Source of the DNA: an uncultured Myxococcales bacterium
GTDB taxonomy: Bacteria; Myxococcota_A; UBA9042; CAIXZC01
Direction: 5' to 3'
Length of the DNA stretch: 38,322 nucleotides
Assembly: GCA_964565265.1 (NCBI GenBank)
Contig: CAZMEC010000006.1
Coordinates: forward strand, 1-38,322
Notes under the pieces: model-generated
Told to the model about the DNA's origin: nothing
The model's database searches: none
What the model saw: the letters and a program-made list of their open reading frames with translations, nothing else
Position numbers and translations under genes: made by a program
In this document: in pieces, positions 9,884 through 28,430 of the stretch
Layout of the letters: every line of letters begins with the position of its first letter
How positions within the stretch are numbered: position 1 is the first letter of the stretch

Positions 9884-11527
9884 TCAAGGTGCCTGAAGTT
9901 CCCACTTGACGGCGTCGAAGGCTACGGCGCACTTGGAGGGGGAGGCGTTGTAATCCTTGAGGGTCACCTCGCCTACCGTGTTCTGGAAGGAATAGCTGCC
10001 CAGGAGGTTCCAGCCGGGGGAGGCCTGGGAGGCCGTAACCCCCAGGCCATCGCCGGACTGATTGCTCATGGTCTTGACCCAGTATTTGACGCTGGAGCAA
10101 CGAATCCACGACTTGACCGAGTACAAACCAAGGTAGGGGTCATAGGAGTCGGGGTCGGGCACATGGTAGTACAGCTTGTAGACCCCGGTGAGGGCCTGGC
10201 TTGTCCTCCAGCGCCCAAAGGTGCCGTCCCCGCCAAAGTTTGGGGTGTAGCGGATGTTCTTGTTGTAGCCCTTGGTGTTGAACCAGCCGTCGGGGCTGCC
10301 GTCGGTGTGGTCGGAGGCCTTGAAGATGGAGTCGCTGGGCGAGCCCATGGACCAGCCCGAGGCGTCGTGGCTGTCGATGATGACCGAACTGGGGCCACAT
10401 TTGCATTGGGCGCTCGCGCAGGAACACAGCCCGCAGTCCTTCACGGTGTCGTTGGAGACCCCCTTGCAGTCGAACCACATCACGGTGTTGAAGATGCAGT
10501 CCTGGTAGTCATGCTTGGTGCAGGACACGCAGTCTCCCCCGTCACATATCTGAGTGCTGGAGCAGGAGGCGTACACGATATCTCTGCAGGAGTCGCCGTC
10601 GTCGGCATCACCGCAATACCAGCGGGTCTCGTCGTCGTCACAGTCCTGCTCGCCCTGACTGCACTCGTCGTTGCAGGTCTCCAGACACTGACCGCCGCTG
10701 CACTCCAGGCCCCAGTCGCAGCCCTCGTAGATGCGGTCCCGGCAGGGGTCGCCGTCACCCGCATCACCGCAATACCAGCGGGTCTCGTCGTCGTCACAGC
10801 CAAGGTTTCCCAGGTTGCACTCGTGGGTGCAGGTGATCTTGCACTGGCCGGCCTGGCAGGCCGTGCCCCCCTCACAGGTCTCGTAGAGTTTGTCCCGGCA
10901 GGGGTCCCCGTCATCGGCCAGCCCGCAATACCAGCGTTGCAGATCCCCGTTGCAGCCCGTTTGGTTGACGGCGCACTCGTCGACGCAGACCTCGGCACAC
11001 AGGTCGTCGGCACAGACGCCGGGGCACAACTCCTTGACCTCCTCCGCCGTGCCGCAGCTGTCGAACCACCACAGGTCTCCCTCCCAGCAGCCCCAGGTGT
11101 GGTGGCTTTCGGGAAGGCAGCCCTGGTCGGCGTCAAGGCCGCTGTCAGTTCCCAGGAGGCTGTCCTTGCCTTCACTGATCTCCACCGGGGTTTCCGTGTC
11201 CGGCTGGGGCTGAACCTCCATCAGCCCAAGGTCCTGGCCTCCGTCCCCTGGTTGGCCTCCCGAGTCTGGCTCAGTGGCGAGTTCGCCCAGGGCCCCGGCC
11301 TCGGAGAGGCTATCGTCCTCCAGGCCAGCCACATCCCACTTCCAGTGCTGGCCACAGACCCCCGCCTCGCAGGTCAGCCCGTCACTGCAGACCGCGCCCT
11401 GCAGACAGGGGCCGCCCGCTTCCCCCGGAGGAATGCTCTCGAAGGCGGCGGTGCTGTTTCCCCCGCAGCCCCCAACCGCCACCCCAAGCAGCAGCAACAG
11501 CCACATCAGTCTGGTCTTGGTACCCAT
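9884..11527 (-). CDS. Cys-rich repeat lipoprotein with C-terminal beta-sandwich (golvesin/CBM-like) domain
   Basis: Lipobox-like VAVGGC; acidic linker; three 52-aa 8-Cys repeats; C-terminal GVYKLYYHVP..GWNLLGSYSF..VAFDAVKW. Confidence 0.7.
   Translation of the reverse strand: MGTKTRLMWLLLLLGVAVGGCGGNSTAAFESIPPGEAGGPCLQGAVCSDGLTCEAGVCGQHWKWDVAGLEDDSLSEAGALGELATEPDSGGQPGDGGQDLGLMEVQPQPDTETPVEISEGKDSLLGTDSGLDADQGCLPESHHTWGCWEGDLWWFDSCGTAEEVKELCPGVCADDLCAEVCVDECAVNQTGCNGDLQRWYCGLADDGDPCRDKLYETCEGGTACQAGQCKITCTHECNLGNLGCDDDETRWYCGDAGDGDPCRDRIYEGCDWGLECSGGQCLETCNDECSQGEQDCDDDETRWYCGDADDGDSCRDIVYASCSSTQICDGGDCVSCTKHDYQDCIFNTVMWFDCKGVSNDTVKDCGLCSCASAQCKCGPSSVIIDSHDASGWSMGSPSDSIFKASDHTDGSPDGWFNTKGYNKNIRYTPNFGGDGTFGRWRTSQALTGVYKLYYHVPDPDSYDPYLGLYSVKSWIRCSSVKYWVKTMSNQSGDGLGVTASQASPGWNLLGSYSFQNTVGEVTLKDYNASPSKCAVAFDAVKWELQAP
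10523..10987 (-). repeat. Intragenic 156-bp (52-aa) tandem repeat, 3 copies
   Basis: Identical 39-mer at 10605-10643 and 10761-10799; CCGCAATACCAGCG recurs at 10923-10936; period 156 bp. Confidence 0.9.
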
Positions 11528-11566
11528 GGTGCCCCCCGGGTCAGGTCCACTCTCTGCCCGGCGTGT

Positions 11567-11643
11567 ACGCTAGCACCCCCGCACCTTTGCAGTCAAAGGA
11601 TCAGGGCTGACTTATTTGACCGACCCCAACCCCTTGATATAAA
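11567..11643. promoter_or_regulatory. Divergent sigma70-like promoters with an inverted repeat
   Basis: Plus strand: TTGACC (11616-21), 16 nt, TATAAA (11638-43) with TGn extension. Minus strand: TTGACT (11596-91), 18 nt, TAGCGT (11572-67). Palindrome CCTTTG-CAGT-CAAAGG at 11584-11599. Confidence 0.55.
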
Positions 11644-11664
11644 GGCCGCCGGAGGAATGTCGCC

Positions 11665-11892
11665 ATGTCAAACGAAATTCTGTTGGACTGTCAGGGAATG
11701 AAATGCCCCCGCCCCATCATCGAACTGGCCAAGGCTGCCCGCCGAAATGGTCCGGGCACCATGCTTCGGGTCATCTCCGACGACCTGGCCTTTGAGAGCG
11801 ATGTGAACGCCTGGTGCGACACGGGCAAGGGCAAGCTGCTGTCCCTGGAGAAGCAGAGTCAGGTCGCCATCGCCGTGATTGAGTTGCTTTAG
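11665..11892 (+). CDS. tusA: TusA family sulfur carrier
   Basis: 75 aa; LDCQGMKCPRP, LRVISDD, DVNAWC; RBS GGAGG. Confidence 0.9.
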   Translation: MSNEILLDCQGMKCPRPIIELAKAARRNGPGTMLRVISDDLAFESDVNAWCDTGKGKLLSLEKQSQVAIAVIELL

Positions 11893-11905
11893 CGAAGGAG
11901 CCCCC

Positions 11906-12484
11906 ATGGAAGCCAGCAATCAACAGGATCTCATGACCCGCTTCGATGCCCTGGAGGCCCAGGTTGCGCAGCTCAAGCGGCAGGTCGCCGAGGGCCTGCC
12001 CAAGGACCAGGTCAGCATCATCTGCTTCAGCGGCGATTGGGACCGCCTGTTCGCGGCCCTCACCCTGGCCAGCGGCGCTTTGGCCATGGGCCAGGAGGTC
12101 CACCTCTTCTTCACCTTCTGGGGTGTGCCCGCGCTGCGGAAAGGCGCCAAGGCCGGCCCCTGCCCCCCAAAGGATCTCTCCCAGGCCATGATGTCCGGCA
12201 TGCTGCCCTGTGGGCCCTGCAACGCCAAGCTGTCCAAGATGAACTTCCTGGGCCTGGGCAAGATGATGTTGCGCCGCCTCATGAAGAAGCAGGGCGTGGA
12301 CGACATTGATGTGCTGATGCGGGAGGTGCGGGAGCTGGGCGCCCATATTCACCTGTGCGAGACCTCCGCCGCGCTCTTTGGCCTGTCCAAGGGCGAGTTG
12401 GCTGACAATGAGGAGATCAACCAGTGCGGAGTCGCAACCTTCATGGGGCACGCCATGAAGAGTCGATTTGTCCTGTTCATCTGA
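11906..12484 (+). CDS. DsrE2/YrkE-type (DsrE/DsrF/DsrH-like) sulfurtransferase
   Basis: SIICFSGDWDR, VHLFFTFWG, LSKMNFLGLG, HIHLCETS, GVATFM; N-terminal coiled coil; RBS AAGGAG. Confidence 0.88.
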   Translation: MEASNQQDLMTRFDALEAQVAQLKRQVAEGLPKDQVSIICFSGDWDRLFAALTLASGALAMGQEVHLFFTFWGVPALRKGAKAGPCPPKDLSQAMMSGMLPCGPCNAKLSKMNFLGLGKMMLRRLMKKQGVDDIDVLMREVRELGAHIHLCETSAALFGLSKGELADNEEINQCGVATFMGHAMKSRFVLFI

Positions 12485-12515
12485 CGGCCACGGGCTGGAG
12501 CAAAAGGAGCGCTCA

Positions 12516-12902
12516 ATGAGCAAAGAACTTGGAACCATGATTGTGCTGACGACGGGCAAGCAGGACCGCGGCACCCGGGCAACCCTGGCCTTCTCCTGGG
12601 GCTGCGCGGCCCTGGCCATGGGGCAGACCGTGGCTGTCTACCTGACCATGGATGGCACCGTGTGGGCCAGCAAGGGCGCCGCCGACAATGTATCCGTGGC
12701 GGGCTTTGAGACCCTGGACTGCTACATTGAGCAATTCCTGGCCCTGGGCGGCGAAATCCTCGTCTGCGCGCCGTGCAGTGAATACTACTGCTCGTTCACG
12801 CCGGCCAGCGGCCATAGCGCGCTCTTGCCCGAGGCCCAGCTTGTGGGCCTGGCGACCATTGTGTCCCGGACTGGCCAGGGGACCAAGATCATCACCTTCT
12901 AG
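12516..12902 (+). CDS. DsrE family protein
   Basis: RATLAF..AALAMG, VAVYLTMDG, GGEILVCAPC; RBS AAGGAG. Confidence 0.82.
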   Translation: MSKELGTMIVLTTGKQDRGTRATLAFSWGCAALAMGQTVAVYLTMDGTVWASKGAADNVSVAGFETLDCYIEQFLALGGEILVCAPCSEYYCSFTPASGHSALLPEAQLVGLATIVSRTGQGTKIITF

Positions 12903-12914
12903 GAGAGGTAGCCC

Positions 12915-13970
12915 ATGGGATCCACCTTGAACCCTGGCCACAACCCGAACGATGGAGATGTGGCCTTGAACCCAGCCGAGGCCTCCCGTTGGCGAATCGC
13001 CCAACTGGAGTCACTGCTGCGCCGCTCCCGGGATGAGCAGGCCCGTCTGGAGGCCCATGCCGCAGACTTCCGCCTGCAACTGGAGAACAGGGACGCCCAG
13101 TGGGCTGACATCCAGAAGATCAACCTCAGGCTGGCGAGAGCCAACGCCGAAAGCGCCGAACTCATGGCCGAACTTGAGGAGCGAAACCGCAGCCTCAAGG
13201 AGGCCAACCTCGCCCTGGCCCGGGCCAACGCCCACGGGGCCGAGCTCATGGCCACCATCCAGATCAAGGAAGACGAGATCCAGCGCCTCAACCGGTCCCT
13301 GTCCGGGGCCAACGCCACGGCCGCCGAACTGGTGGCCGAGCGGGAGCTGCAGTTGGAGGAGATGGATCGGCTGAACAAGAACCTTCGCAAGGAGGTCCTG
13401 GAGAGAAAGAAAGCCGAGGAGAGCGCCGCCGACCTGGCCCTCCAGCTTGCCCGGGCCAACCAGAACCTGGACCGGCTGGCGACCATTGACGCCCTCACCG
13501 AGGTCCTGAATCGTCGCGGCATTGACCGCCAGCTCACCGCCGAACTCAGCCGAGCCGCCCGCGGGGGCCACGCCATCGGGGTCATCTTCGTGGACTTCGA
13601 TGACTTCAAGTCCGTCAATGAACGCTTTGGTCATGTGGGCGGAGATGTGGCCCTGCAGGACATTGCGAGGCGGCTGATGCGCTCCCTCAGAAACACCGAC
13701 TGCCTGGGGCGCATCGGTGGCGACGAGTTCATGGCAGTGATCCCCGATGTGGCCCGGCCCGAACTGGCCATCATGGCCGAGCGCTTCCGGGCTGCCGCCG
13801 CCGACACCCCCATGACCATTGCTGGCCAGGAGGTGACCGTGACCTTGAGCCTGGCCGCTGCGGTCCTGTCCCCAGACACCTCGTCCCTGGACGAGATCCT
13901 CTCCCAGGTCAAGGACGGCCTGGCCACCAGCAAGAAGCTCGGCAAGAACCGCGTGACCATGGTGGGCTAA
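12915..13970 (+). CDS. Diguanylate cyclase with repetitive coiled-coil N-terminus
   Basis: DALTEVLNRR, DFDDFKSVNERFGHVGGD, I-site RNTD, intact GGDEF, GKNRV; no TM, REC, PAS or GAF domain seen. Confidence 0.93.
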   Translation: MGSTLNPGHNPNDGDVALNPAEASRWRIAQLESLLRRSRDEQARLEAHAADFRLQLENRDAQWADIQKINLRLARANAESAELMAELEERNRSLKEANLALARANAHGAELMATIQIKEDEIQRLNRSLSGANATAAELVAERELQLEEMDRLNKNLRKEVLERKKAEESAADLALQLARANQNLDRLATIDALTEVLNRRGIDRQLTAELSRAARGGHAIGVIFVDFDDFKSVNERFGHVGGDVALQDIARRLMRSLRNTDCLGRIGGDEFMAVIPDVARPELAIMAERFRAAAADTPMTIAGQEVTVTLSLAAAVLSPDTSSLDEILSQVKDGLATSKKLGKNRVTMVG

Positions 13971-13983
13971 GGTCCCCCGGGGT

Positions 13984-14538
13984 TCAGCCCAGGTGCTCCA
14001 CAAGAATCTTCACGCCAATGGAAATCAGGATGGCCCCTGCCACGAGGCCCATGCGTTTGCCGAAGCGCCGCCCGGCCCCTCGGCCCAGGAAGAAGCCCCC
14101 GTAGGTCATGGCAAAGGCCACCACCCCAATCACCACTGAGGGCCACAGGACTGCCAGACCCACCGTGGCAAAGGAGAACCCGACGGCGAAGGCGTCGATG
14201 CTGGTGGCCACCGCCAGCAACAGCAGCGCCACGCCCTTGCTGGCATCCGGGGACGGAGCCTCCGGGTCGCCCAGGGCCTCCCAGCCATTCTTCAGGCCCA
14301 CCACCAACAGCAGCCCGAAGGCCAACCAGTGATCCCAGGCCCGCACCAGAGCCTCCGCCGCTGCGCCGGCGCCAAAGCCAAGCAGGGTCATCCCGGTTTG
14401 GAACACGCCGAAGGCTGTGGCCATGCGAATTGCGGGAACAAGGCAGCTTCTTCGGGGGCAGATGCCGGCGCTGACGGCCACCGCGAAGGCATCCATCCCA
14501 AGGGCCACTGCCACCAGCAGTATCTCGATCCAGCTCAT
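13984..14538 (-). CDS. mntP: Manganese efflux pump MntP family
   Basis: ALGMDAFAVA and ATSIDAFAVG repeats, WDHWLAFGLL, GAILISIGVKILVEHL. Confidence 0.9.
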   Translation of the reverse strand: MSWIEILLVAVALGMDAFAVAVSAGICPRRSCLVPAIRMATAFGVFQTGMTLLGFGAGAAAEALVRAWDHWLAFGLLLVVGLKNGWEALGDPEAPSPDASKGVALLLLAVATSIDAFAVGFSFATVGLAVLWPSVVIGVVAFAMTYGGFFLGRGAGRRFGKRMGLVAGAILISIGVKILVEHLG

Positions 14539-14545
14539 ATCCGCG

Positions 14546-16567
14546 TCACTCCACCTGATCCTGGGCCAGCATTCCATAGCGTTTGTCCAGGACCGCCTTG
14601 CGGGTCTGGATTTCCTTCTCCAGGGTCTCCCACTGCTGCATCAGGTCCTCCAGCAGGCAGTTCAGCTCCCCGTGGCGATGGGACAGCAGGAGGATGCCCT
14701 CGGCGTCGTGCTGTTCGGGGGAATCCATGGCCGTCTCCAACTGCTCCAACTCGACTTCCGCGGTGGAGATGCTCTGCTCCACCACGGTCAGCTTCTTCTT
14801 CAGGTCCGCGGTGTCCCGGTGGAGGGCCTGACGGTATTCGGCCTCCTGGCGCTTCCGGTCCCGGTCCGCCTTGCGGCTGGCCTCGGTCTGTCCCTGCTCG
14901 GGACGGCCTGCCTGGGCTTCCGGTTCCTTGGGCGTCGGCGTGGCCGCGGGCGTGACCTGGGCCTTCTCCCCCTGCTTCTTCTTCCAGGCGTAGTAAGAGA
15001 AGTTCCCCGGGTAACTCTCCAGGACCCCGTTCTCCATCTCCAGCACCCGCCCCGCCACCGCATCGATGAAACGCCGGTCATGGGAGGTGAACAGGATGGC
15101 CCCCTGGTACTGGCGCAGCGCCTCCTCCAGGATTTCCCGGGACTCAATGTCCAGGTGGTTGGTGGGCTCGTCCATCATCAACAGGTTGGAGGGCCGCACC
15201 AGCAGCTTGGCCAGGGCCAGCCGGCTCTTCTCGCCGCCGGACAGGTACCCCACCTTCTTGTCGATGTCGGTGCCGGTGAACTTGAAGGCCCCCAGCAGAT
15301 TCCGAATCTTCGACACCTGCAAGCCCACGGAGACCCCGAGCATCTCGTTCCACACTGTGTTGGCCGAGTTGAGCTCTTCAAGGTGATGCTGGGCGAAGTA
15401 GGCGGGCACCACATTGTAGCCCAGTTCCAACTCGCCGCCGCTGGCTTCCAGGCGCTGGGAGAGGATCTTCATCAGCGTGGACTTGCCCGCACCGTTCACC
15501 CCCACCAGGGCGCACTTCTCGTTCTGGTAGATGTCCAGGGACAGGTTGCGGAAGACCTCCTTGGTCCCATAGGACTTGGCCAAGCCGCGAATCTTCACGA
15601 CCAGCTTCCCAGGGCGAGGGGCTTCGGGGAACTCAAAGGTGATATGGCCCTCCTCTCGGGGAGCCTCCACCCGTTCGATGGCATCCAACTTCTTCATCCG
15701 GCTTTGGGCCTGGCGCGCGCGATCCTTGCGGACCCGGTTTCGGGAGATGAAGTCCTCAAGCTCGCGGATCTGGGCCTGCTGGTCCTGAAACCGCTTCACC
15801 GCAAGCCGCTCGTCCTCGGCCTTGAGCCGCTTGTAGTTGTCGTAGTCCCCGGGGTACTGGCGGACCTTGCCCTGGTCGACCTCGATGATGCGCTTTACGG
15901 TCCGGTTCAAAAACTCGCGGTCGTGGGCCACCAGGACCAGGGCCCCGGTGAAGCTCTGCAGGTAGTTTTCGAACCACATCATGGACTCCATGTCCAGGTG
16001 GTTCGTGGGCTCGTCCAGCAACAGCGCCTCGGGAGAGGACAGCAACATGCGAGCCAACTCGGCGCGCATCTTCCAGCCCCCCGACAGCTTGGCCCAGTCG
16101 TCGTTCTGGAGCCGCGCATCAAAGCCAAGCCCCGACAGGATCTCCTTGGCCCGGGGCACCAGCGCATCCCCGCCCATCATCTCGTAGCGGGTCTGCAGAT
16201 CCGTGAGGCGGGCCAGCACGGGTCGGCCGAGTTCGGCGTCCTTCAGCAAAGGATCGTGGGTGAGTTCCTCAATCAGGTGCCGAGTGGAGTGAAAGCCCTC
16301 CACCCCGTCCAGCACATTGAACAGCACGGGGCCCTGGCGGTCCTGGGAAATCTCCTGCCGCAGATAGCCGATCTTCGCACCCTTGGCCCGCCCCACCTCG
16401 CCGGTATCGGCGCTGAGTTCCCCGGCAATGACCCGAAAGAGCGTGGTCTTGCCGCTGCCATTCTTCCCCACCAGGCCCACCCGGTCGTCCCGGGCAATCC
16501 GAAGGTTCACGCCCTCAAACAGCGGACGCTCGCCAAATGATTTTCCAACATCGCAAAGGTGTATCAT
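14546..16567 (-). CDS. ABC-F family ATPase (YheS/Uup-like)
   Basis: Two NBDs (GKNGSGKT, LSGGW, LDEPTNHLD; GVNGAGKST, LSGGE, MDEPTNHLD), no TM segments, C-terminal coiled coil. Confidence 0.93.
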   Translation of the reverse strand: MIHLCDVGKSFGERPLFEGVNLRIARDDRVGLVGKNGSGKTTLFRVIAGELSADTGEVGRAKGAKIGYLRQEISQDRQGPVLFNVLDGVEGFHSTRHLIEELTHDPLLKDAELGRPVLARLTDLQTRYEMMGGDALVPRAKEILSGLGFDARLQNDDWAKLSGGWKMRAELARMLLSSPEALLLDEPTNHLDMESMMWFENYLQSFTGALVLVAHDREFLNRTVKRIIEVDQGKVRQYPGDYDNYKRLKAEDERLAVKRFQDQQAQIRELEDFISRNRVRKDRARQAQSRMKKLDAIERVEAPREEGHITFEFPEAPRPGKLVVKIRGLAKSYGTKEVFRNLSLDIYQNEKCALVGVNGAGKSTLMKILSQRLEASGGELELGYNVVPAYFAQHHLEELNSANTVWNEMLGVSVGLQVSKIRNLLGAFKFTGTDIDKKVGYLSGGEKSRLALAKLLVRPSNLLMMDEPTNHLDIESREILEEALRQYQGAILFTSHDRRFIDAVAGRVLEMENGVLESYPGNFSYYAWKKKQGEKAQVTPAATPTPKEPEAQAGRPEQGQTEASRKADRDRKRQEAEYRQALHRDTADLKKKLTVVEQSISTAEVELEQLETAMDSPEQHDAEGILLLSHRHGELNCLLEDLMQQWETLEKEIQTRKAVLDKRYGMLAQDQVE

Positions 16568-20947: not shown

Positions 20948-22915
20948 TCACTTCACCTCGGCCGCAGCGGCGGGCTCGGCCTTCTTCTCTTCGGCCTTGG
21001 GGGCCGCAGGCTCGGCCTTCTTCTCTTCGGCCTTGGGCTCGGCGGCGGGCTCGGCCTTCTTCTCTTCGGCCTTGGGCTCGGCGACGGGCTCGGCCTTCTT
21101 CTCTTCGGCCTTGGGCGCGGCGACGGGCTCGGCCTTCTTCTCTTCGGCCTTGGGCTCGGCGGCAGCCGCAGGGGCTTCGGCGCCTTCGGTCTTCTGGACC
21201 TTTTCAATCTTCAGGGCCGCGCCCGCCTCGTCAATGGCAGGGTTCACGGTCTCAAAGAGCTTCTTGGCCAAGGCCTCGGCGTCTTCCATCATGTCCATCT
21301 GGATGTTCTCGCGGATCTCGCGCATGGCGGGGTCCACCACGGACAACTTCTTGAGCAACTCGTCGGCCTTCTTCACAAAGGCCCGGTCTTCAGCGGTGGC
21401 CTTCTTGTTGGCCTTGATGGCATCCTTCTTCTCCTGCAGCAGGCGCGTGTACTGACCGGCCTTGGACTCCAGGGTCTTGAAGTTGCTTTCCATTTCCTTG
21501 ATGCGGACCGCCTGCTCTTCCATGGCCTTCTTGGCGGCGGCTTCTTCCACCTTCATCTGCTCTTCCATCTTGCGCATCTGCTCTTGCATCTTGCGCGTCT
21601 GCTCAATGGACTTCTGGGCCTCAGTCACATCCAGGCCCAGGCCCGTGGCGACCTTGACATACTCCTCGTAGGCCTCCACGGCCTTGTCGAAGTCCGACAG
21701 CCGAAGCTGGTAGGTGCGCCCGATGCGCAGCAGCAGTTCGACATTCTCGGGGGAGACCGCCACGGCCTTGCGGTAGAACTTGAAGCCCTCTTCGTAGTCC
21801 TGCAGGCCGATGGAGGCGCTGCCGATGCCGATGGTAGCTTCCACATTACCGGGGCGGGCGTTCAGGACATACTCGTACTGAGCCCGGGAGGCCTCGTAGT
21901 TGAGGTATTCCAGGTAGATGGCCGCCAGATTCATGCGGGCCGTCAGGTTGTCCTGGTTCAGCTTCAAGGCCACATTGAAGTGGAACACGGCCTTGGGGGT
22001 GTCGCCCAACTTCAGGTAGGCCAGGCCCAGGTTGTTGTGGGCCTCGGTGGAGGCGGCATCCAGCTTCAGCACCTTGTTCTCAAAGATCCACCGGGCCAGG
22101 CTGGCCTCGCCCCGGGCCAGGTAGATGAGGCCGCGGGTGTTGAGGGCGATGACATTGGTGGGCTGGAGCGTGAGCACATTCTTGATGAACTCCTCGCCGC
22201 GGTTCAGGTATTCCTGGTGCTTGGCCTCATCCTTCTCGCGCTCGGCCTTCAGCAGCCAATAGAGGGCCACGGCGTTGTTGGCCTCCACATTGTCGGTGTC
22301 CTTCATCAGGACCAGATCCAGCAGAGACTTGGCGTCGGCCATCAGCTTGGCGCCTTCGTCCTCGCTGCCCAACTCAAAGGCCTCCTTGGCCTTGGCCAGG
22401 TACACCTTGCCGATGTAGGACTTGGCGGCCCCGGAGTCGGGGTTGGCCGCAAGGGCACTCTGGTAGACCTTGATGGCCTCTTCCCGCTGGCCCGTGCGCT
22501 CGTAGATCATGCCCAGGTTGAAGTAGGCCTCCAGGAAGTTCTTGTCCAGGACGATGGCCTGCTCAAAGGACTGTCTGGCCAGCTCGTAGTCCATGGTGGA
22601 GTAGAGCGCGATGACGCCATCCCGGAACTTCTTCTGGGCCTCAACCTCAACACCAGGCACGAACTCGAGTTCCTGCACCACGACCTCGCGCTTTTGCAGG
22701 GAGCGAGCCAGATCATCTTTCAGCATCTGCTCTTTCTCGTCCTGCTTGCGCTGCTGCTCCAGGCGGGCCATCTCCTCAGGGGAGGGTCCCATGGGCTTCT
22801 TTTCCTGAACCGTGGCGGAGGGCCCGCAGGCCCCGAGGCCCAAGGAGAGGGCCACCACGGAGGCGATTACTGAACTATTTTTGGTGATATTGGCAAACAC
22901 GGCAGTCCCCCTCAC
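20948..22915 (-). CDS. gltE: GltE/AglT-like TPR lipoprotein with C-terminal extension
   Basis: Lipobox LGAC, many TPRs (EAYFNLGMIYE, EAHNNLGLAYL), GTGA overlap with the upstream gene. Confidence 0.7.
   Translation of the reverse strand: MRGTAVFANITKNSSVIASVVALSLGLGACGPSATVQEKKPMGPSPEEMARLEQQRKQDEKEQMLKDDLARSLQKREVVVQELEFVPGVEVEAQKKFRDGVIALYSTMDYELARQSFEQAIVLDKNFLEAYFNLGMIYERTGQREEAIKVYQSALAANPDSGAAKSYIGKVYLAKAKEAFELGSEDEGAKLMADAKSLLDLVLMKDTDNVEANNAVALYWLLKAEREKDEAKHQEYLNRGEEFIKNVLTLQPTNVIALNTRGLIYLARGEASLARWIFENKVLKLDAASTEAHNNLGLAYLKLGDTPKAVFHFNVALKLNQDNLTARMNLAAIYLEYLNYEASRAQYEYVLNARPGNVEATIGIGSASIGLQDYEEGFKFYRKAVAVSPENVELLLRIGRTYQLRLSDFDKAVEAYEEYVKVATGLGLDVTEAQKSIEQTRKMQEQMRKMEEQMKVEEAAAKKAMEEQAVRIKEMESNFKTLESKAGQYTRLLQEKKDAIKANKKATAEDRAFVKKADELLKKLSVVDPAMREIRENIQMDMMEDAEALAKKLFETVNPAIDEAGAALKIEKVQKTEGAEAPAAAAEPKAEEKKAEPVAAPKAEEKKAEPVAEPKAEEKKAEPAAEPKAEEKKAEPAAPKAEEKKAEPAAAAEVK
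20967..21163 (-). repeat. Intragenic 39-bp tandem repeat (PKAEEKKAEPxAx), about 5 copies
   Basis: GGCTCGGCCTTCTTCTCTTCGGCCTTGG recurs five times. Confidence 0.92.
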
Positions 22916-25900
22916 TTGCTTTCCTTGGTTTCGGCCTTGGTCTCGGTGGCCTCGGCGTCGTCGCTTTGTTCCTTGAGCTCGTCGGTCTCGGCGGGCTTGG
23001 CCTCTTCCTTGCCCTTGCTGCCGGCGAAGGAGACGAAGTCAACCTCGGTGTCGCCGCGGCGCAGGCTGCGGATGAAGCTGGTGCTGGTGAGGGTGTCCCG
23101 GATCTTGTCCGCGTGAACCAGGGGCTCTTCGGAGACCGGGAAGTCCTGCGGCGTCACCTTGGCGGCCATGGTGCCAGACTTCCGTGACCATTCGCTGTAC
23201 ACGCCCATCTTGTGGGCCATCTGAATGGCTTCTTTGAAGTTCGCCCGGGCCTTCTCTTCCACGGGCGCGGCGAAGTCTTCGAGGGAGGTCTTGTATTCGT
23301 CAATCTCGTCCTCGCTGAGGCCCTCGGGCAGCGGCACCGCGTACAAGGTCTCGGCGAACTCGTAGTACAGCAGACCAATCTTGTAGTAGGCCGCGGCGGC
23401 CCAGGTCCGGGACTTGTAGTTGATCACCATGGCGAAGGAGGCCTCGGCCTTCTGGTGCCGCTTGGCCTTGCCTTCCAGGGAGTCCGACAGAGCGTAGAGG
23501 TTCCGGGTGTCAAGCTTGAAGGCCACATAGTCGGCGTAGTCGTACTCGGCCTGGTAGAAGGCGGCCTGGGCGGCAAAGACCCTGGTGGGGGCCTTGCGGC
23601 TGGTGTCGCCGGACTTGTCGTAGACCGTCAGGATGGTCTTGCAGTGGGCCAGGACCTTGGTGCGGTTCACATCCCTGTCCTTGGTGAACAGCACCTCGGC
23701 GGCGCGGGCATTGGCCTCCATGACCACATTGCCGTTCTTGGAGAACTTCTTGGCTGTGTCCGTGTACTGGGCGTAGGCCGCATCCAGATCGCCCTTGTCC
23801 TGCTGCAGCCGGCCAATCTTCAAGAGGGCCGAGGACACGCGGGTGTCGTTGGGGAAGCTCTTGTTGAAGGTCTTGAGGGCGTCAATGGCCTTGTCGTGAT
23901 CCTTCAGGGCCTCGTACAGCGTGGCGGCGTTGATGATGGCGCCGGCGACCCGGGGTTCGCCCTTGAACTTGTTCATGGCCATGAAGGCCTCAGCGGCCTT
24001 TTCAAACTGGGTCTGGGACTCGTAGATCTGGCCAATCACATACTGGGCCTCCACGGCCTTGGGGCTCTTGGGGTACTTCTTGATGAGGTCTTCGTAGTTC
24101 TCGATGGCCTTCCGCAGTTCCTTGTTCTTCGCGTAGAGGTAGGCCATGGTGTAGGTCGTGTACGCCATGATCTCTTTGTTCTTCGCGAACTCGCGGCGCA
24201 GCTTGCTCAGGGTCTCCAGGGAGGCCGTGGTCTTGCCCTCGGTCTCCTGGTCCTGGGCCTTGCGGGTCATGGCCGTGGCGACGATGAGTTCCAGGTCGGC
24301 CTTGCTCTTGAAGAGGAAGTTCTTGGTGGCGATGAGGGTCCGGGCCCACTCTTCCACCTTGTCCCAGTTACCCACGCGGTAGTAGCAGTCCATGATCATC
24401 GTCGCGGCGATGGCGGCGAAGCGGTGCTTCTCGTCATAGCGGAAGATGTTCTGGAAGCGCTCGACGGCCTCCTGGAACATGCCGTGCTTGTAGAAGGTCT
24501 CGGCGGCGATGTACATGATGTTGGGGATCATCTCGCCCTTGGCCGGGTACTTCTTGACGAAGTCCGGGTCCTCGCGGGCCTTCAGCAGCAACTGGGTGTA
24601 CTTGTCGGCGGCGCTGATGAAGTCCTGCTCCAGGGGGTGCAGGTCGGTGCGCTGGATCTCCATGGCCTCCTCGCGCATATCCTCGGCCTTCACCTGCTTG
24701 ACCTGGACCTCGCCCTTGTCGGCGCGGCTTCGCAGGCCTTCGACCACCATCAACTGCTCGTTGCAGTAGATGACGCCCAGGGCCGCGTCCTCCAGGAACT
24801 TGCCCTTGAGATCCTTCTGGATCACGAGCTTGTACTGTTCGGCTGCCTTCTTGAAATCCTTGAGGTTGAAGTAAAGGATTTCTGCGTACCAGAAGCTGAC
24901 CTCGTAGGAGCGGTTGCTGTTGGGGAAGCGCTCCAGGTAGATGGCGTAGTACTTGGCAGCGTTGACATACAGAGGCCCGGCCACCTCGGTCTTGCCGGCC
25001 TTCTCCTGCTTGTCACCCTCCACATGGTAGTAGTTGGCGACGAAGAAGATGGCCTCTTCCGTCATGTTGGCGGCGGTGTCCAGGATCTCCGGGTCGTTCT
25101 TGTTGGCGTTGGCCCAGTTCGACCCTTCGATGAAGAAGGCCATGATCTCGTTGACCACGCGCTCGGTCTCGTCCCAGTTGGGGGACTTCTGGGAGATGTC
25201 CAGGATGACCTGGTAGTACTCCGTGACGCGGCGGGACAGGGGGAAGGTCTCGATGAGGTGGTAGTACACCGCCAAGGCTTCTTCCTGCTTGTCCTGGCCC
25301 ACATAGAGTTCGGCCATCTTGTGCAGCTTCACATAGGCGCCGTCCTTGCCGATCTCCTTGGTGAAGTACTCGAGGGCCAGCTTCCAGCCGTCGTCCACTT
25401 CGGTGTAGACCAGCACCAGGTCGTTCAGAGCCTGGTCACGGAAGGACATCTTGGCCTGCTCGGAGGACTCGGACTTGATGGCCTCGATGACCTTGTGGAA
25501 GGTGTCCACGGACTTCTCGAACTCGGACAGGTTGTAGTACACCCACGCCAACTTGTAGAGGGCGTAGTTGTACATGCTGGCCGTGGGATAGTTGTTGATG
25601 ATGGTCTCGTACTTCGTCTTGGCGTAGTACAGGGACCGGTTCTCGAAGTAGTACTCGGCCTGATGCAGCAGGGACTGGGGAATGAGCCGACTGCTGGGAT
25701 AGCCCTGGATCAGGTTGTCGAAGTGCTTGATGCCCTCGCGCTGAAGCTGGATATCCTTGTTGGTGCGACCCACCTCGAGGGCGCCGCGGCCCAGGAAGTA
25801 CAACACTTCGTCAATGCGCTGGTAGTCGGGGTATTCGCGGAGGATCTTCCGGTAGTACTCCAGGGAGGTGCCGTAGTCGCCCACGGGCTCGCGGGGGCGC

Positions 25901-26367
25901 TCGGTCAGGAGGCCGGCGTCGAACTTGTCCAGGGCGTCCAGCCAGGTCTTGCGGGCGTTCAGGTACTGGAAGTGGTTCTCTTCCCAGTAGGATTCGGCCA
26001 GCCGGAAGTACACATCGGCCTTGCGATCGTACCGCGGATTGGTGGCCAGCAGGTCCTCCATCTGGCGGATGTTCTGCTTGCGGAGGTCAGACTTGCGGGC
26101 CTGCATCTCCTCGAACTTCTTGTCAATGGCCGCCACTTCGAAGTCCGACAGGGTCATGGCTGCCTTGACGCAGATGCCCTTCACGGAGTCGCAGATCTGA
26201 CCCTGGGGACAGTCCCCATCGGCCTCGCACTTGATGTCCTTGGATTCGACATCCTTCGTCTTGATCTTGGTGATCTCACGCTTGGCGCGGGACCGCTCGC
26301 CCATTCCCTGGGCAAAGGCCGGCGCCGAAAGCAGAACCATCAACAACGCAAGCAGGGCATTCCTCAT
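22912..26367 (-). CDS. gltD: GltD/AgmU-like large TPR periplasmic protein
   Basis: Signal peptide from ATG 26367 (ATGA overlap with the upstream stop); ADVYFRLAESYWEE, YALYKLAWVYYN, PLPEGLSEDEIDEYK..PVEEKA, YSEWS. Confidence 0.75.
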   Translation of the reverse strand: MRNALLALLMVLLSAPAFAQGMGERSRAKREITKIKTKDVESKDIKCEADGDCPQGQICDSVKGICVKAAMTLSDFEVAAIDKKFEEMQARKSDLRKQNIRQMEDLLATNPRYDRKADVYFRLAESYWEENHFQYLNARKTWLDALDKFDAGLLTERPREPVGDYGTSLEYYRKILREYPDYQRIDEVLYFLGRGALEVGRTNKDIQLQREGIKHFDNLIQGYPSSRLIPQSLLHQAEYYFENRSLYYAKTKYETIINNYPTASMYNYALYKLAWVYYNLSEFEKSVDTFHKVIEAIKSESSEQAKMSFRDQALNDLVLVYTEVDDGWKLALEYFTKEIGKDGAYVKLHKMAELYVGQDKQEEALAVYYHLIETFPLSRRVTEYYQVILDISQKSPNWDETERVVNEIMAFFIEGSNWANANKNDPEILDTAANMTEEAIFFVANYYHVEGDKQEKAGKTEVAGPLYVNAAKYYAIYLERFPNSNRSYEVSFWYAEILYFNLKDFKKAAEQYKLVIQKDLKGKFLEDAALGVIYCNEQLMVVEGLRSRADKGEVQVKQVKAEDMREEAMEIQRTDLHPLEQDFISAADKYTQLLLKAREDPDFVKKYPAKGEMIPNIMYIAAETFYKHGMFQEAVERFQNIFRYDEKHRFAAIAATMIMDCYYRVGNWDKVEEWARTLIATKNFLFKSKADLELIVATAMTRKAQDQETEGKTTASLETLSKLRREFAKNKEIMAYTTYTMAYLYAKNKELRKAIENYEDLIKKYPKSPKAVEAQYVIGQIYESQTQFEKAAEAFMAMNKFKGEPRVAGAIINAATLYEALKDHDKAIDALKTFNKSFPNDTRVSSALLKIGRLQQDKGDLDAAYAQYTDTAKKFSKNGNVVMEANARAAEVLFTKDRDVNRTKVLAHCKTILTVYDKSGDTSRKAPTRVFAAQAAFYQAEYDYADYVAFKLDTRNLYALSDSLEGKAKRHQKAEASFAMVINYKSRTWAAAAYYKIGLLYYEFAETLYAVPLPEGLSEDEIDEYKTSLEDFAAPVEEKARANFKEAIQMAHKMGVYSEWSRKSGTMAAKVTPQDFPVSEEPLVHADKIRDTLTSTSFIRSLRRGDTEVDFVSFAGSKGKEEAKPAETDELKEQSDDAEATETKAETKESK

Positions 26368-28430
26368 TTGCATTCCTCTTTCACGAAACTGCGGTAACCC
26401 CAGATTTCGTCTTCCCAGTAGTCGCCCTCGAAGGGCCATTCCAGAGAGTCACTACCCACGATGGTGGTGCTGCCACCGACATTCTCTTCGCCCGCCACGA
26501 CCTCTTCGATGGCGTCAATCACCTTGCCGGAGATCTTGGCCTTGCGCAGGGCGTTGAAGTGCTTGACCTTGAACAGCCTGAAGATGGGGTCGGAGCCCAC
26601 GAACTTGATGAGGTCCGCCTCGCCGCGGCCGGCTTCCTGCATGCGCACCAGGCCATTGACGGCGTCGGTGAGCTGCTGCTCGGCCAGCAGTTCCTTGGTG
26701 GACTCTTCGATCTTCTCCATCTCGACCTGGTTCAGGTCCAGTTCGATTTCGGTGACCTTCACCTGGTAGTCACGCAGATCCTTCTGGATGTTGCGGAAGG
26801 CCATCTGGATCTTGATGCCGATCTCGTTGATGCGGCTGATCTTCTGGTTCTCCAACATGGAGATGGTCTCTTCGCCCCAGGAGCCCAGCTTGCCACGCAC
26901 GCCGCTGAGGGACTTCAGTTCCTTCTCCACCTGGGTGATGGTCCGGTACAGCCGGTAGATATCGGCGTTCGCCATCACGGGGTACATGAGTTCCATGGGC
27001 AGGTTGTAGGCGCCTCCCTGGCCGTTGCCGATGCGCACGAAGGCCATGTAGTACTCGGCCTGGGTCCGCATGTTGCGGATGAACTGGTCCAGGGGGATGG
27101 CCTTGGTGGAGATGTGCCGCTTGAACATCTCCAGGGTGAGGCGGGCGCGCTCGTACTGGCAGATGTTCATGTAGATGGTGGACTCAAGGATCCAGAGCTC
27201 GGGGTAGAAGTAATGATCGAAGAAGGGGCTGTGGAGGGCGTGGAAGGTACCCACGGCGCGGCTGTAGTCGCCCTTCATGAAATAGGTCCAGCCCATTTCG
27301 TAGAACGCGTCGGGCAGCCGGGGGCTGTTCTTGGGGATCTTGCGGTAGTAGTAAATGGCGCCGTCGTAGTTGCCGGTCTCGTAGGCGATTCGGGCCAGGG
27401 CCAGATAGGCCATGTCCGCCACGCGGGCCTCGGACTTGTTGCGATTCTGGCTTTCCACCGCCTCCTGGAAGGACTGCACGGCGGACTTGTACATCTGGTT
27501 GGCCACCTGCACCAGGCCGGTGAGGTAGCGGGCCTTGGCGTGAAGCTGGCTGTCCGAGGAGACCTCGCCGAAGTACTTCAGGGCCATGCTGTAGTTGCTG
27601 CCCTCGTAGAAGAACTCGCCCAGGAAGTAGTTGTACTTGTCCTGGAAGCCACGGCTGAAGTTGCCCACGAAGAACTGGGTGAGCTGCTCCAGGTCGGGGG
27701 GGCTGTAGGCCACGCGCTTGCGCATCTCGACGAGGTTGTCGAAGGCGGCCTGGAAGAAGGTCTTGTCGGGGCCCTGGAGGACAATCTCCAGCAGCATGCT
27801 GGCAGCGCTTTCGTACAGGCCAGCCTTCACCAGAGCAAGGGCCATGCCGTAACGGGCGTTGTAGTACTCGTCCGTGGTGGGGCCGTAATTGTTCTTCTGA
27901 ATGAAAGCCTGGAACAGGCGGATGGCTTCCACATACTCGCCCTTCTCAGCCAGTTCCATACCGGTCTTGAGCTGACCCTTGGCATAGGCCTTCTTCTGGG
28001 CGTCCATGGCGCGCTCTTGTTCCTGCTTGAGGCGCAGGGCCTCGGACTTGGCCCGCTCGGCTTCGGCGCGGATCTCCTCCGGGGTCTTCTCCACCACGGC
28101 CTGCTGCATGCCGGGCATGGGGGCCGCGGCCACGGGGGCCACGGGGGCCTGCACCGCGCCGTACATCTGGGGCGTGGCCAGCATGTGGCGGATGACCTTC
28201 TCAGGCACGCCCGCGTTCTTCAGTTCAAGGATCTCGTTGATGTTCAGATTGAAGATCGTCCGATCCTTGTCAATGGCCTGGATTATCTCGTCCTCGCTGA
28301 TGCCGAGCTTCGCCAAGGTGATCACTTCACTCTTGCTGATGGCGAAGGCGACTGAGGGTAGCGCAAGCACCCCCAGCAGCACCGCAAGGGTCAGGACCGT
28401 GTTCAGTCTGGATCTGAGGTTCATGGTCAT
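26364..28430 (-). CDS. gltC: GltC/NfsC-like TPR protein
   Basis: AYLALARIAYE, AFYEMGWTYF, ALHSPFFDHYFYPE, C-terminal WPFEGDYWEDEIWGY..C. Confidence 0.75.
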   Translation of the reverse strand: MTMNLRSRLNTVLTLAVLLGVLALPSVAFAISKSEVITLAKLGISEDEIIQAIDKDRTIFNLNINEILELKNAGVPEKVIRHMLATPQMYGAVQAPVAPVAAAPMPGMQQAVVEKTPEEIRAEAERAKSEALRLKQEQERAMDAQKKAYAKGQLKTGMELAEKGEYVEAIRLFQAFIQKNNYGPTTDEYYNARYGMALALVKAGLYESAASMLLEIVLQGPDKTFFQAAFDNLVEMRKRVAYSPPDLEQLTQFFVGNFSRGFQDKYNYFLGEFFYEGSNYSMALKYFGEVSSDSQLHAKARYLTGLVQVANQMYKSAVQSFQEAVESQNRNKSEARVADMAYLALARIAYETGNYDGAIYYYRKIPKNSPRLPDAFYEMGWTYFMKGDYSRAVGTFHALHSPFFDHYFYPELWILESTIYMNICQYERARLTLEMFKRHISTKAIPLDQFIRNMRTQAEYYMAFVRIGNGQGGAYNLPMELMYPVMANADIYRLYRTITQVEKELKSLSGVRGKLGSWGEETISMLENQKISRINEIGIKIQMAFRNIQKDLRDYQVKVTEIELDLNQVEMEKIEESTKELLAEQQLTDAVNGLVRMQEAGRGEADLIKFVGSDPIFRLFKVKHFNALRKAKISGKVIDAIEEVVAGEENVGGSTTIVGSDSLEWPFEGDYWEDEIWGYRSFVKEECK

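Follow-up and report, generated by a model that had tools for sequence, protein, structure and literature searches.

We analysed a stretch of 38,322 nt (the window), contig CAZMEC010000006.1 from the assembly of an uncultured Myxococcales bacterium (GCA_964565265.1). It carries four co-oriented open reading frames (ORFs), tusA, dsrE2, dsrE and a gene for a coiled-coil GGDEF protein. The first three encode members of sulfur-carrier families and the fourth a predicted GGDEF diguanylate cyclase. Searches seeded with DsrE, the coiled coil and DsrE2 place the same gene set in at least nine phyla, including Thermoplasmatota archaea. In the window the ORFs are separated by gaps of 13, 31 and 12 nt, and Shine-Dalgarno-like strings (GGAGG, AAGGAG or GGAGAGG) lie 6-8 nt 5' of all four starts. 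This agrees with an original prediction, made from the letters of the window, of a four-gene unit with a ribosome-binding site at each gene. The motifs quoted there (KCPRP, HLCETS, VCAPCSEYYC and RNTD...GGDEF) can all be read in the sequence. Independent contigs of four other lake-water runs span every gene junction with 0 differences (Table 1), so the gene arrangement is not an assembly artefact.

Four gene products

TusA (75 aa) matches Pfam TusA (PF01206) with 53.1 bits against a cut-off of 28.6. Its Cys14, in the CPxP motif (KCPRP), is retained in 37 of 38 cassette TusA sequences. The score against the E. coli-type equivalog NF001423 is 35.7 bits, below the cut-off of 78. The protein is therefore a TusA-family member and not the tRNA-thiolation orthologue.

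DsrE2 (192 aa) matches Pfam DrsE_2 over residues 33-191 (112.4 bits, cut-off 25). Residues 1-32 are predicted to form a leucine-zipper-like helix, and the remainder the DsrE2 fold. The N-terminal zipper pattern, which the original prediction had overlooked, is found in 38/38 cassette sequences. Neither PDB 3PNX nor the NCBIfam DsrE2 model includes it. The match to 3PNX (E 2e-19) is confined to residues 31-192, and the soluble PDB chains 3PNX and 2QS7 are both similar from residue 31 on. Cys151 (in HLCETS) aligns with the Cys of 3PNX and is present in 38 of 38 cassette sequences, as is Cys174; Cys40 is present in 33 of 38. Against the Allochromatium-type equivalog NF047629 the protein scores 55.4 bits, below the cut-off of 210.

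The third carrier, DsrE (128 aa), is divergent, with 36.0 bits to Pfam DsrE (PF02635; cut-off 22.7). Four Cys are near-invariant across the cassettes: Cys30 (40/42), Cys84 (41/42), Cys87 (42/42) and Cys92 (42/42). Cys84 and Cys87 form a C-x-x-C that is absent from canonical DsrE proteins. By hhalign, Cys84 corresponds to Cys151 of DsrE2 (probability 94%), and Cys84 and Cys92 align with Cys of PDB 3MC3 (E 0.003), Cys84 falling at its VC. NCBIfam returned 0 families at E ≤ 0.01, so no named DsrE, TusD or DsrE3 equivalog applies, and an Atlas search returned generic DsrE clusters only, with scores up to 0.90. In a search of 1.84 billion proteins, only 10 representatives matched the DsrE profile at E ≤ 1e-30, and two of these are long repeat artefacts. 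This small number indicates a small, separate subfamily. By mean pairwise distance DsrE is the most conserved of the four (0.405), followed by TusA (0.442), the coiled coil (0.465) and DsrE2 (0.527). Fusions of DsrE to other domains were also sought. A homologue search limited to longer proteins found none, which is weak evidence, and in the exhaustive search all full-length, single-stretch profile matches were 63-180 aa. Long hits consisted of 6-32 short stretches of ~25-60 model residues each and were taken as low-complexity artefacts.

The fourth protein (351 aa) matches GGDEF (PF00990) over residues 189-346 with 128.7 bits (cut-off 23.8) and TIGR00254 with 134.2 bits. An RxxD I-site lies five residues upstream of the intact GGDEF motif. 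No Pfam family covers residues 1-188, which bears out the earlier remark that the cyclase has no recognisable sensor domain. A hydrophobic window near the N-terminus is lacking in every listed member of its coiled-coil family, the window protein (P0061) included, which speaks for the absence of a membrane helix at that end; seven listed members have such a window inside the catalytic domain.

Table 1. Features of the cassette and contigs of other runs bridging its gene junctions, in window coordinates
Feature	Position	Strand	Basis or detail
tusA	11665-11892	+	ORF; Pfam TusA
dsrE2 (PF13686)	11906 (ATG)-12484	+	ORF; Pfam DrsE_2
dsrE	12516 (ATG)-12902	+	ORF; Pfam DsrE
Coiled-coil GGDEF cyclase (predicted)	12915-13970	+	ORF; Pfam GGDEF
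Three exact 28-residue repeats	13119-13370	+	aa 69-96, 97-124, 125-152; motif positions 76, 104, 132
Helical linker, last repeat to GGDEF	13371-13478	+	fixed heptad phase
GGDEF catalytic domain	13479-13952	+	I-site RNTD 13689-13700; GGDEF 13716-13730
Putative promoter-like element, TTGACC (11616-11621), 16 nt, TATAAA (11638-11643)	11616-11643	+	5' of tusA; by eye only
Bridging contig, X3 record 10	11645-12800		
Bridging contig, X4 record 19	12361-13744		
Bridging contig, X5 record 26	12290-13097		
Bridging contig, X2 record 5	12585-13211		

Linkage of the carriers to a repeat module with variable outputs

The cyclase has full-length relatives in three other genomes, one of its own genus (85% identity), one of a different genus within the family (56%) and one of a different family within the class (53%). 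All three have tusA, dsrE2 and dsrE directly upstream, with different flanks. A DsrE alignment was then used as seed against one genome per species (185,579 species), giving 23 loci. Their record labels are Myxococcota, Bacteroidota, Kiritimatiellota, Victivallales, Verrucomicrobiales, Chloroflexi, Gemmatimonadetes, Thermodesulfobacteriota and Thermoplasmatales archaea. As judged by local profiles, a gene that starts with this coiled coil is present at 22 of the 23, directly 3' of dsrE in 21 and 5' of tusA in locus L022. The cassette at L024 has no dsrE2, and L023 ends at a contig end. No cultured host is among the matches; the cassette records whose titles were shown are metagenome-assembled genomes or metagenome contigs.

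Two further seeds gave the same association. A 58-residue alignment of the coiled coil found 15 genome loci and 21 metagenome loci. Carriers adjoin 14 of the 15 genome loci, 13 of which had already been found; the others are a new cassette (L040) and an orphan kinase (L047). In the metagenome set dsrE adjoins 20 of 21 loci, with dsrE2 and tusA wherever the contig extends, and the 21st (L053) has only ~50 nt upstream of the gene, too short to judge. The DsrE2 seed brought up the large general family, with more than 560 loci, of which 80 were kept. Of these, 14 new loci have a DsrE2 scoring 250 bits or more against the cassette profile, and 13 of the 14 show the usual gene order with dsrE, tusA and the coiled coil. 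Where the DsrE2 match starts at or after model position 14, with most or all of the zipper helix gone, the coiled coil is found at 0 of 56 loci. Eight loci keep the helix but score below 250 bits and lack the coiled coil (L087, L088, L090-L093, L135 and L138). The fourteenth locus (L075:3944-5306) has a cassette-type DsrE2, a truncated dsrE (model positions 2-48) and a gene for a HicB-like antitoxin. It looks like a decayed cassette.

The gene set thus recurs in dozens of unrelated contigs, so its linkage is more than chance, and the reciprocal searches rule out chance or hitch-hiking. A GGDEF linkage unique to this genome had been named beforehand as the outcome that would count against the original prediction; the neighbourhood search found the linkage across phyla. 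Within the window's class (107 genomes), a strong DsrE and the coiled coil occur in the identical 7 genomes, adjacent on one contig. The other 100 have neither, and four of them have weak or divergent DsrE-family matches; we give these counts without a statistic, since related genomes are not independent. All four proteins co-vary in a mirror-tree comparison (r 0.60-0.74), the pairs of which are not independent.

Flanking genes are not conserved between cassettes; stand-alone receiver genes occur at a few loci. In 85 flank ORFs scanned around 21 loci, no rhodanese, Dsr, Hdr or YedE was found. The scanned ORFs of the 38-kb window likewise include no rhodanese, persulfide dioxygenase, Dsr or Hdr gene, so that the usual sulfur partners are missing, as had been noted.

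The part of the cyclase upstream of the catalytic domain contains exact repeats (Table 1), a strict array that the original prediction had not recognised. The consensus is LNxxLAxANAxxAELxAELExKxEEL, and each unit spans four heptads. Searching a protein collection with the coiled coil gave 157 clusters at E ≤ 1e-5, and the counts for relatives given here refer to the 120 listed. At least two repeats at exact 28-residue spacing are present in 118 of the 120 (two in 26, three in 68, four in 23 and five in 1). Counted from the last repeat, the kinase H-box follows at a distance of 6 mod 7 in 41 of 49 relatives in which the search pattern located an H-box. For the DxLT motif at the opening of the GGDEF domain the spacing is 39 or 60 residues, 4 mod 7 either way, in 17 of 17 GGDEF-type relatives. 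These spacings indicate that the helix enters the catalytic domain in a fixed phase, like signalling helices.

Highly conserved positions of the repeat logo include several outside a and d of the heptad (N2, A6, N9, A10, A13, E14, A17 and E20), the core being our own heptad assignment. Positions 8-15 were partly fixed by the search pattern, and positions 2, 5, 6, 17, 18, 20, 22 and 26 were free of it. An outward Ala stripe flanked by Asn would be expected of a repeated docking surface, and the 28-residue repeats are our candidate for the surface on which the carriers dock. A search for a known domain in the repeats found no Pfam family at E ≤ 0.01, and E ≤ 0.1 brought up only sub-threshold matches to generic coiled-coil families, such as PUMA_CC (28.2 bits, cut-off 30.1) and the crescentin rod. 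An Atlas search with residues 62-185 returned generic long-helix proteins only, which is compatible with one continuous helix and nothing further.

The enzyme behind the repeats varies. Outputs comprise histidine kinases, hybrid kinases, PAS-kinases, GGDEF proteins and PF00211 cyclases, and GGDEF is a minority among them, a point missed by the original prediction. At the DsrE-seeded loci, GGDEF is the output of 4 and histidine-kinase types of 18. Of 17 kinase-type genes compared with Pfam, eight have receiver domains (one also Hpt) and five have PAS. The metagenome set has 4 GGDEF outputs, 17 kinase-type outputs and one fragment, and six further cassettes have five kinase-type outputs and one short protein. 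The 120 listed coiled-coil clusters include 17 GGDEF proteins and 2 PF00211 adenylate/guanylate cyclases, the rest being mostly kinases. In these two, P0086 and P0118, the 28-residue repeats are joined to an adenylate/guanylate cyclase domain of class III, and P0118 additionally matches PilZ weakly.

A tree built from the concatenated carriers of 36 loci implies nine changes of output type. For GGDEF, starred branches force two changes, so this output arose at least twice. One origin lies in a Myxococcota clade of six that includes the window, and the other is L066, within a Thermodesulfobacteriota hybrid-kinase group. Archaeal cassettes nest among bacterial ones, which indicates that the cassette moves horizontally. 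The carriers and the coiled coil travel together while the output changes, a pattern expected of an input module.

A candidate input module and competing explanations

We infer that the carriers provide the input, that they bind the repeats and that the signal is sulfane sulfur. Stated more broadly, the carriers would be a sulfane-sulfur or thiol-state input docking on the repeats much as SiaC docks on SiaD, a reading by analogy to which we assign a probability of roughly 55%. Fixed carriers and a fixed N-terminal module with changing outputs, often with no other sensor and in constant helical phase, are characteristic of an input device. Many of the signalling proteins, the window cyclase among them, have the repeats and no other sensor domain.

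On this proposal, the four genes would work as a single sensory cassette in the cytoplasm, in which TusA, the DsrE2-like protein and the divergent DsrE would make up a short thiol-based relay. The relay would accept sulfane sulfur (persulfide, polysulfide or thiosulfonate), or its conserved Cys would change state in some other way. The sulfur donor is not encoded in the cassette. DsrE, with four Cys including the C-x-x-C, would most likely be the end of the relay. It is the best candidate for bearing the state because it is always beside the coiled-coil gene, and is kept in L024, and because a DsrE-like gene is the sole carrier gene in genome G035. DsrE2 may assist in docking; its N-terminal zipper is the best candidate for a helix-on-helix anchor. 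The terminal carrier would bind the 28-residue repeats of the stalk non-covalently. Occupancy would be decided by the Cys state of the relay, most plausibly by persulfide or polysulfide loading passed on from TusA, a protein that hands sulfur onward in the sHdr and Dsr relays (PMC11094781). Binding or release would then shift the dimer geometry or the register of the continuous helix and switch the C-terminal enzyme. Here the output would be c-di-GMP, made by the GGDEF cyclase; in most relatives it would come from a histidine kinase.

A bolder version is more tentative, and we hold it to be possible rather than probable. A persulfide mark on the last member of the relay would be read by a receiver of 28-residue repeats, fused interchangeably to histidine kinases, diguanylate cyclases or adenylate cyclases, and the whole would be a widespread but so far unrecognised class of cytoplasmic sensor in Bacteria and Archaea. 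If so, sulfur carriers would serve as signal transducers in a persulfide-based partner switch, and reactive sulfur would be linked directly to c-di-GMP in lake Myxococcota.

The original prediction had cast the carriers as the input module of a sulfane-sulfur or redox-sensing c-di-GMP system, acting either by binding the coiled coil or by modifying the cyclase. The input role fits the data. So does binding, because the repeats are conserved at surface positions, heptad phase is kept and SiaC-SiaD is a precedent. Modification does not. It would have the relay persulfidate Cys263 of the cyclase, which comes after RNTD and before the GGDEF motif (RNTDCLGRIGGDEF), and the window protein does have this Cys next to its active site. 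The residue is present in 3 of 21 coiled-coil GGDEF relatives, and these three are the window protein itself or 85%-identical sequences (L011 is of the same genus). The remaining relatives have H, V, I, L, S, P or W at this position, and the cyclase alignment has no conserved Cys column. Of the repeat arrays, 109 of 118 are Cys-free. In kinase-type relatives the site is missing altogether, and we regard this route as highly improbable.

Two other explanations are both unlikely. One retains the docking architecture and changes the signal: the Cys-rich DsrE would report thiol/disulfide redox, an oxidant or a thiophilic metal, with TusA and DsrE2 as redox partners. Four near-invariant Cys with a C-x-x-C foreign to canonical DsrE would suit such a role, as would the lack of a dedicated sulfur donor in the cassette and scanned flanks and the host labels, which include largely anaerobic groups. 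Two neighbouring genes give weak hints as well, one for an HMA metal-binding protein at L028 and the window's mntP-like gene, but neither is conserved between loci. The canonical sulfur-binding Cys is kept in all three carriers, and tested members of all three families carry persulfide or thiosulfonate sulfur (PMC11094781; PMC4175335). A plain disulfide switch, moreover, needs no relay of three members.

In the other explanation, which we rank slightly lower, the carriers are metabolic. They would deliver sulfur to a target encoded elsewhere, and the coiled-coil enzyme would be a co-expressed regulator or scaffold answering some other signal. TusA and DsrE2 domains do occur in enzymes, for example in an 826-aa fusion of the same genome, and distant zipper-bearing DsrE2 genes adjoin rhodanese or Hdr-like genes (L084, L087 and L093). 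The PAS domains of some coiled-coil kinases could be the true sensors, yet most of the signalling proteins have repeats alone upstream of the catalytic domain. The scanned flanks hold no conserved metabolic partner, and linkage to one repeat module is near-obligate from three independent seeds. The repeats also stay in helical phase with the catalytic domain, as in signalling helices.

Several observations weigh against docking of the carriers as the input. L033, the sole exception among the 23 DsrE-seeded loci, has carriers with no coiled-coil gene, and the L047 kinase has the coiled coil with no adjacent carriers. PAS domains in some coiled-coil relatives mean that the repeats need not be the sole input. 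Mirror-tree analysis singles out no carrier (partial r with the coiled coil: DsrE2 0.39, DsrE 0.25 and TusA 0.12). DsrE-family proteins are usually trimers (PMC11094781), and the fit of a trimer on a dimeric rod is not obvious. The identity of the signal is deduced solely from known roles of the families, and co-transcription of the four genes is presumed from nothing beyond their 12-31 nt gaps.

The closest precedent is SiaD of Pseudomonas aeruginosa. Two conserved motifs of its stalk each bind the small protein SiaC, and the binding is lost when SiaC is phosphorylated (PMC8457831). Shared with the window cyclase are a GGDEF enzyme, a long helical stalk, repeated conserved motifs and the lack of a ligand-binding domain. 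In SiaD a covalent change of the partner sets binding; for the window cassette this would hold only by analogy. Part of the stalk of the window cyclase matches the SiaD model and PDB 7E6G below threshold, and the score against the SiaD equivalog NF038266 is 123.1 bits, short of the cut-off of 290. The cyclase may work like SiaD although it is not a member of the SiaD family. The partners differ, being sulfur carriers and not SiaC/DUF1987, and scans of the window found no SiaA-, SiaB- or SiaC-like genes. The repeats differ in sequence, length (28 residues) and number (2-5 copies), and this stalk is also fused to histidine kinases and PF00211 cyclases.

The carriers themselves resemble those of sulfur oxidisers. 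In the Rhd-TusA-DsrE2 and TusA/DsrE3 relays of Allochromatium, Metallosphaera and the Hyphomicrobium sHdr system, the same families with the same conserved Cys are found, tusA and dsrE-type genes are clustered and sulfur passes from Cys to Cys (PMC11094781 and PMC4175335). Unlike those relays, the cassette has no rhodanese and no sHdr, Dsr or lipoate-binding partner nearby. Its DsrE2 has the extra zipper helix, its DsrE is divergent with a C-x-x-C, and its neighbour is a signalling enzyme. The YTD cluster of sulfur disproportionators (yedE-related, tusA, dsrE-related and chp1-3) also combines tusA and dsrE-type genes with no rhodanese, and its hosts are anaerobes (PMC12998232). A coiled-coil signalling gene is absent from the YTD cluster. 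Conversely, the window and the scanned flanks have no Sulf_transp/YedE match. A third comparison is with fusions of CoA-disulfide reductase, rhodanese, TusA and DsrE2, where the TusA and DsrE2 modules likewise act together.

Such a fusion is encoded in the same genome (G000), on contig C69 (L069:7-2487, - strand). This 826-aa protein joins a pyridine-nucleotide-disulfide reductase (CoA-disulfide-reductase-like), a rhodanese, TusA and DsrE2, with a DrsE_2 match of 206 bits. Unlike the cassette, it has a flavoprotein reductase and a rhodanese in one chain and no signalling domain. It represents an enzyme-type context of the same carrier families, and could possibly provide a sulfur donor or sink in trans. 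The genome also encodes a ThiF-rhodanese protein, and its rhodanese domains sit on other contigs.

Known sensors of sulfide or sulfane sulfur include CstR, SqrR, BigR and FisR and are mostly transcription factors with a reactive Cys or cluster of their own. The kinase NreB senses sulfide or sulfane sulfur with a [2Fe-2S] cluster (PMC13478379). SqrR controls c-di-GMP, so that persulfide status can feed into c-di-GMP levels (PMC9143464). In these sensors the sensing Cys or cluster lies inside the regulator, and SqrR acts through transcription. The cassette, in contrast, would use a separate three-protein relay, a Cys-free stalk and direct control of an enzyme.

Full-text literature searches, with subscription journals and supplements outside their scope, found no TusA or DsrE beside or acting on such histidine kinases or diguanylate cyclases. 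The earlier statement that no system of this composition has been described stands within that scope. All parts are from known families, and partner-controlled stalks are already known. If the proposed docking is right, the cassette would be a new input class for two-component and c-di-GMP signalling, and the repeats would define a new module, one that lacks any Pfam model. A Cys-free helical receiver, pluggable onto different enzymes, would be informed by a separate carrier relay, and TusA/DsrE-type proteins would gain a signalling role alongside metabolism. The coupling of the sulfur cycle to biofilm formation and lifestyle would become testable in uncultured anaerobes and in lake and sediment bacteria. 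The parts are small and soluble, and could therefore be rebuilt in vitro or used as a biosensor.

Divergent cassettes and surroundings of the locus

Minimal and divergent forms (L024, G035, L089, L118 and L033) keep DsrE beside a signalling enzyme. In G035 a DsrE-like gene stands alone before a short-stalk GGDEF gene. At L089:3971-6405 (Victivallales), dsrE2 and a dsrE-like gene precede a GGDEF protein with degenerate A-x-A-N-x-x-A repeats at its N-terminus. L118:1706-5800 (Planctomycetaceae) has tusA-like, dsrE-like and dsrE2 genes followed directly by a PAS-GGDEF-EAL protein. At L033:2633-4330, tusA-dsrE2-dsrE-dsrE lies between a GAF protein and a GAF-PAS-SpoIIE phosphatase, near a Crp-family regulator. 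The orphan L047:3818-4909 (+ strand) is a two-repeat histidine kinase ~15 kb from cassette L016 on the same contig, and one carrier set might serve two receivers in that genome. In the Myxococcota genome G019, a REC-PAS-HD-GYP protein (L015:1268-4000, + strand) is encoded just 5' of the cassette. The protein is likely a c-di-GMP phosphodiesterase, which would put cyclase and phosphodiesterase side by side.

The window cassette is bounded downstream, as predicted, by a convergent gene (mntP-like, 13984-14577). Upstream of tusA, a divergent gene (9884-11527, - strand) encodes a Cys-rich secreted protein of 547 aa. It has a hydrophobic leader at the N-terminus and contains three Cys-rich repeats of ~48 residues (C...DDDETRWYCGDAGDGDPCRD...). 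Its only match is a sub-threshold one to Golvesin_C, at the C-terminus. The promoter-like element described upstream of tusA can be seen by eye (Table 1). A sigma-70 scan of 11300-14300 did not list it and returned no site passing the scan rule; the element fails that rule on the T at position 6 of the -10. Terminator-like matches were not used, since four of five fall within coding sequence and the fifth runs across the start of dsrE. Neither integrase nor phage genes were found beside the cassette.

The other scanned window ORFs of at least 180 aa encode mevalonate-pathway enzymes, PhoH, phosphoketolase, an ABC-F protein, a sulfatase, TPR proteins, an LD-carboxypeptidase and a patatin; sulfur enzymes are not among them. 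GHMP kinase and HMG-CoA reductase, of the mevalonate pathway, are encoded at 360-2431. Three large TPR-repeat proteins of 655, 1175 and 688 aa are encoded in succession at 20948-28430 (- strand). The 23 runs listed for the stretch include no RNA run. At least half of the words of 11600-14000 are present in 7 lake or freshwater metagenome DNA runs from 5 studies, which indicates that the organism recurs in lakes.

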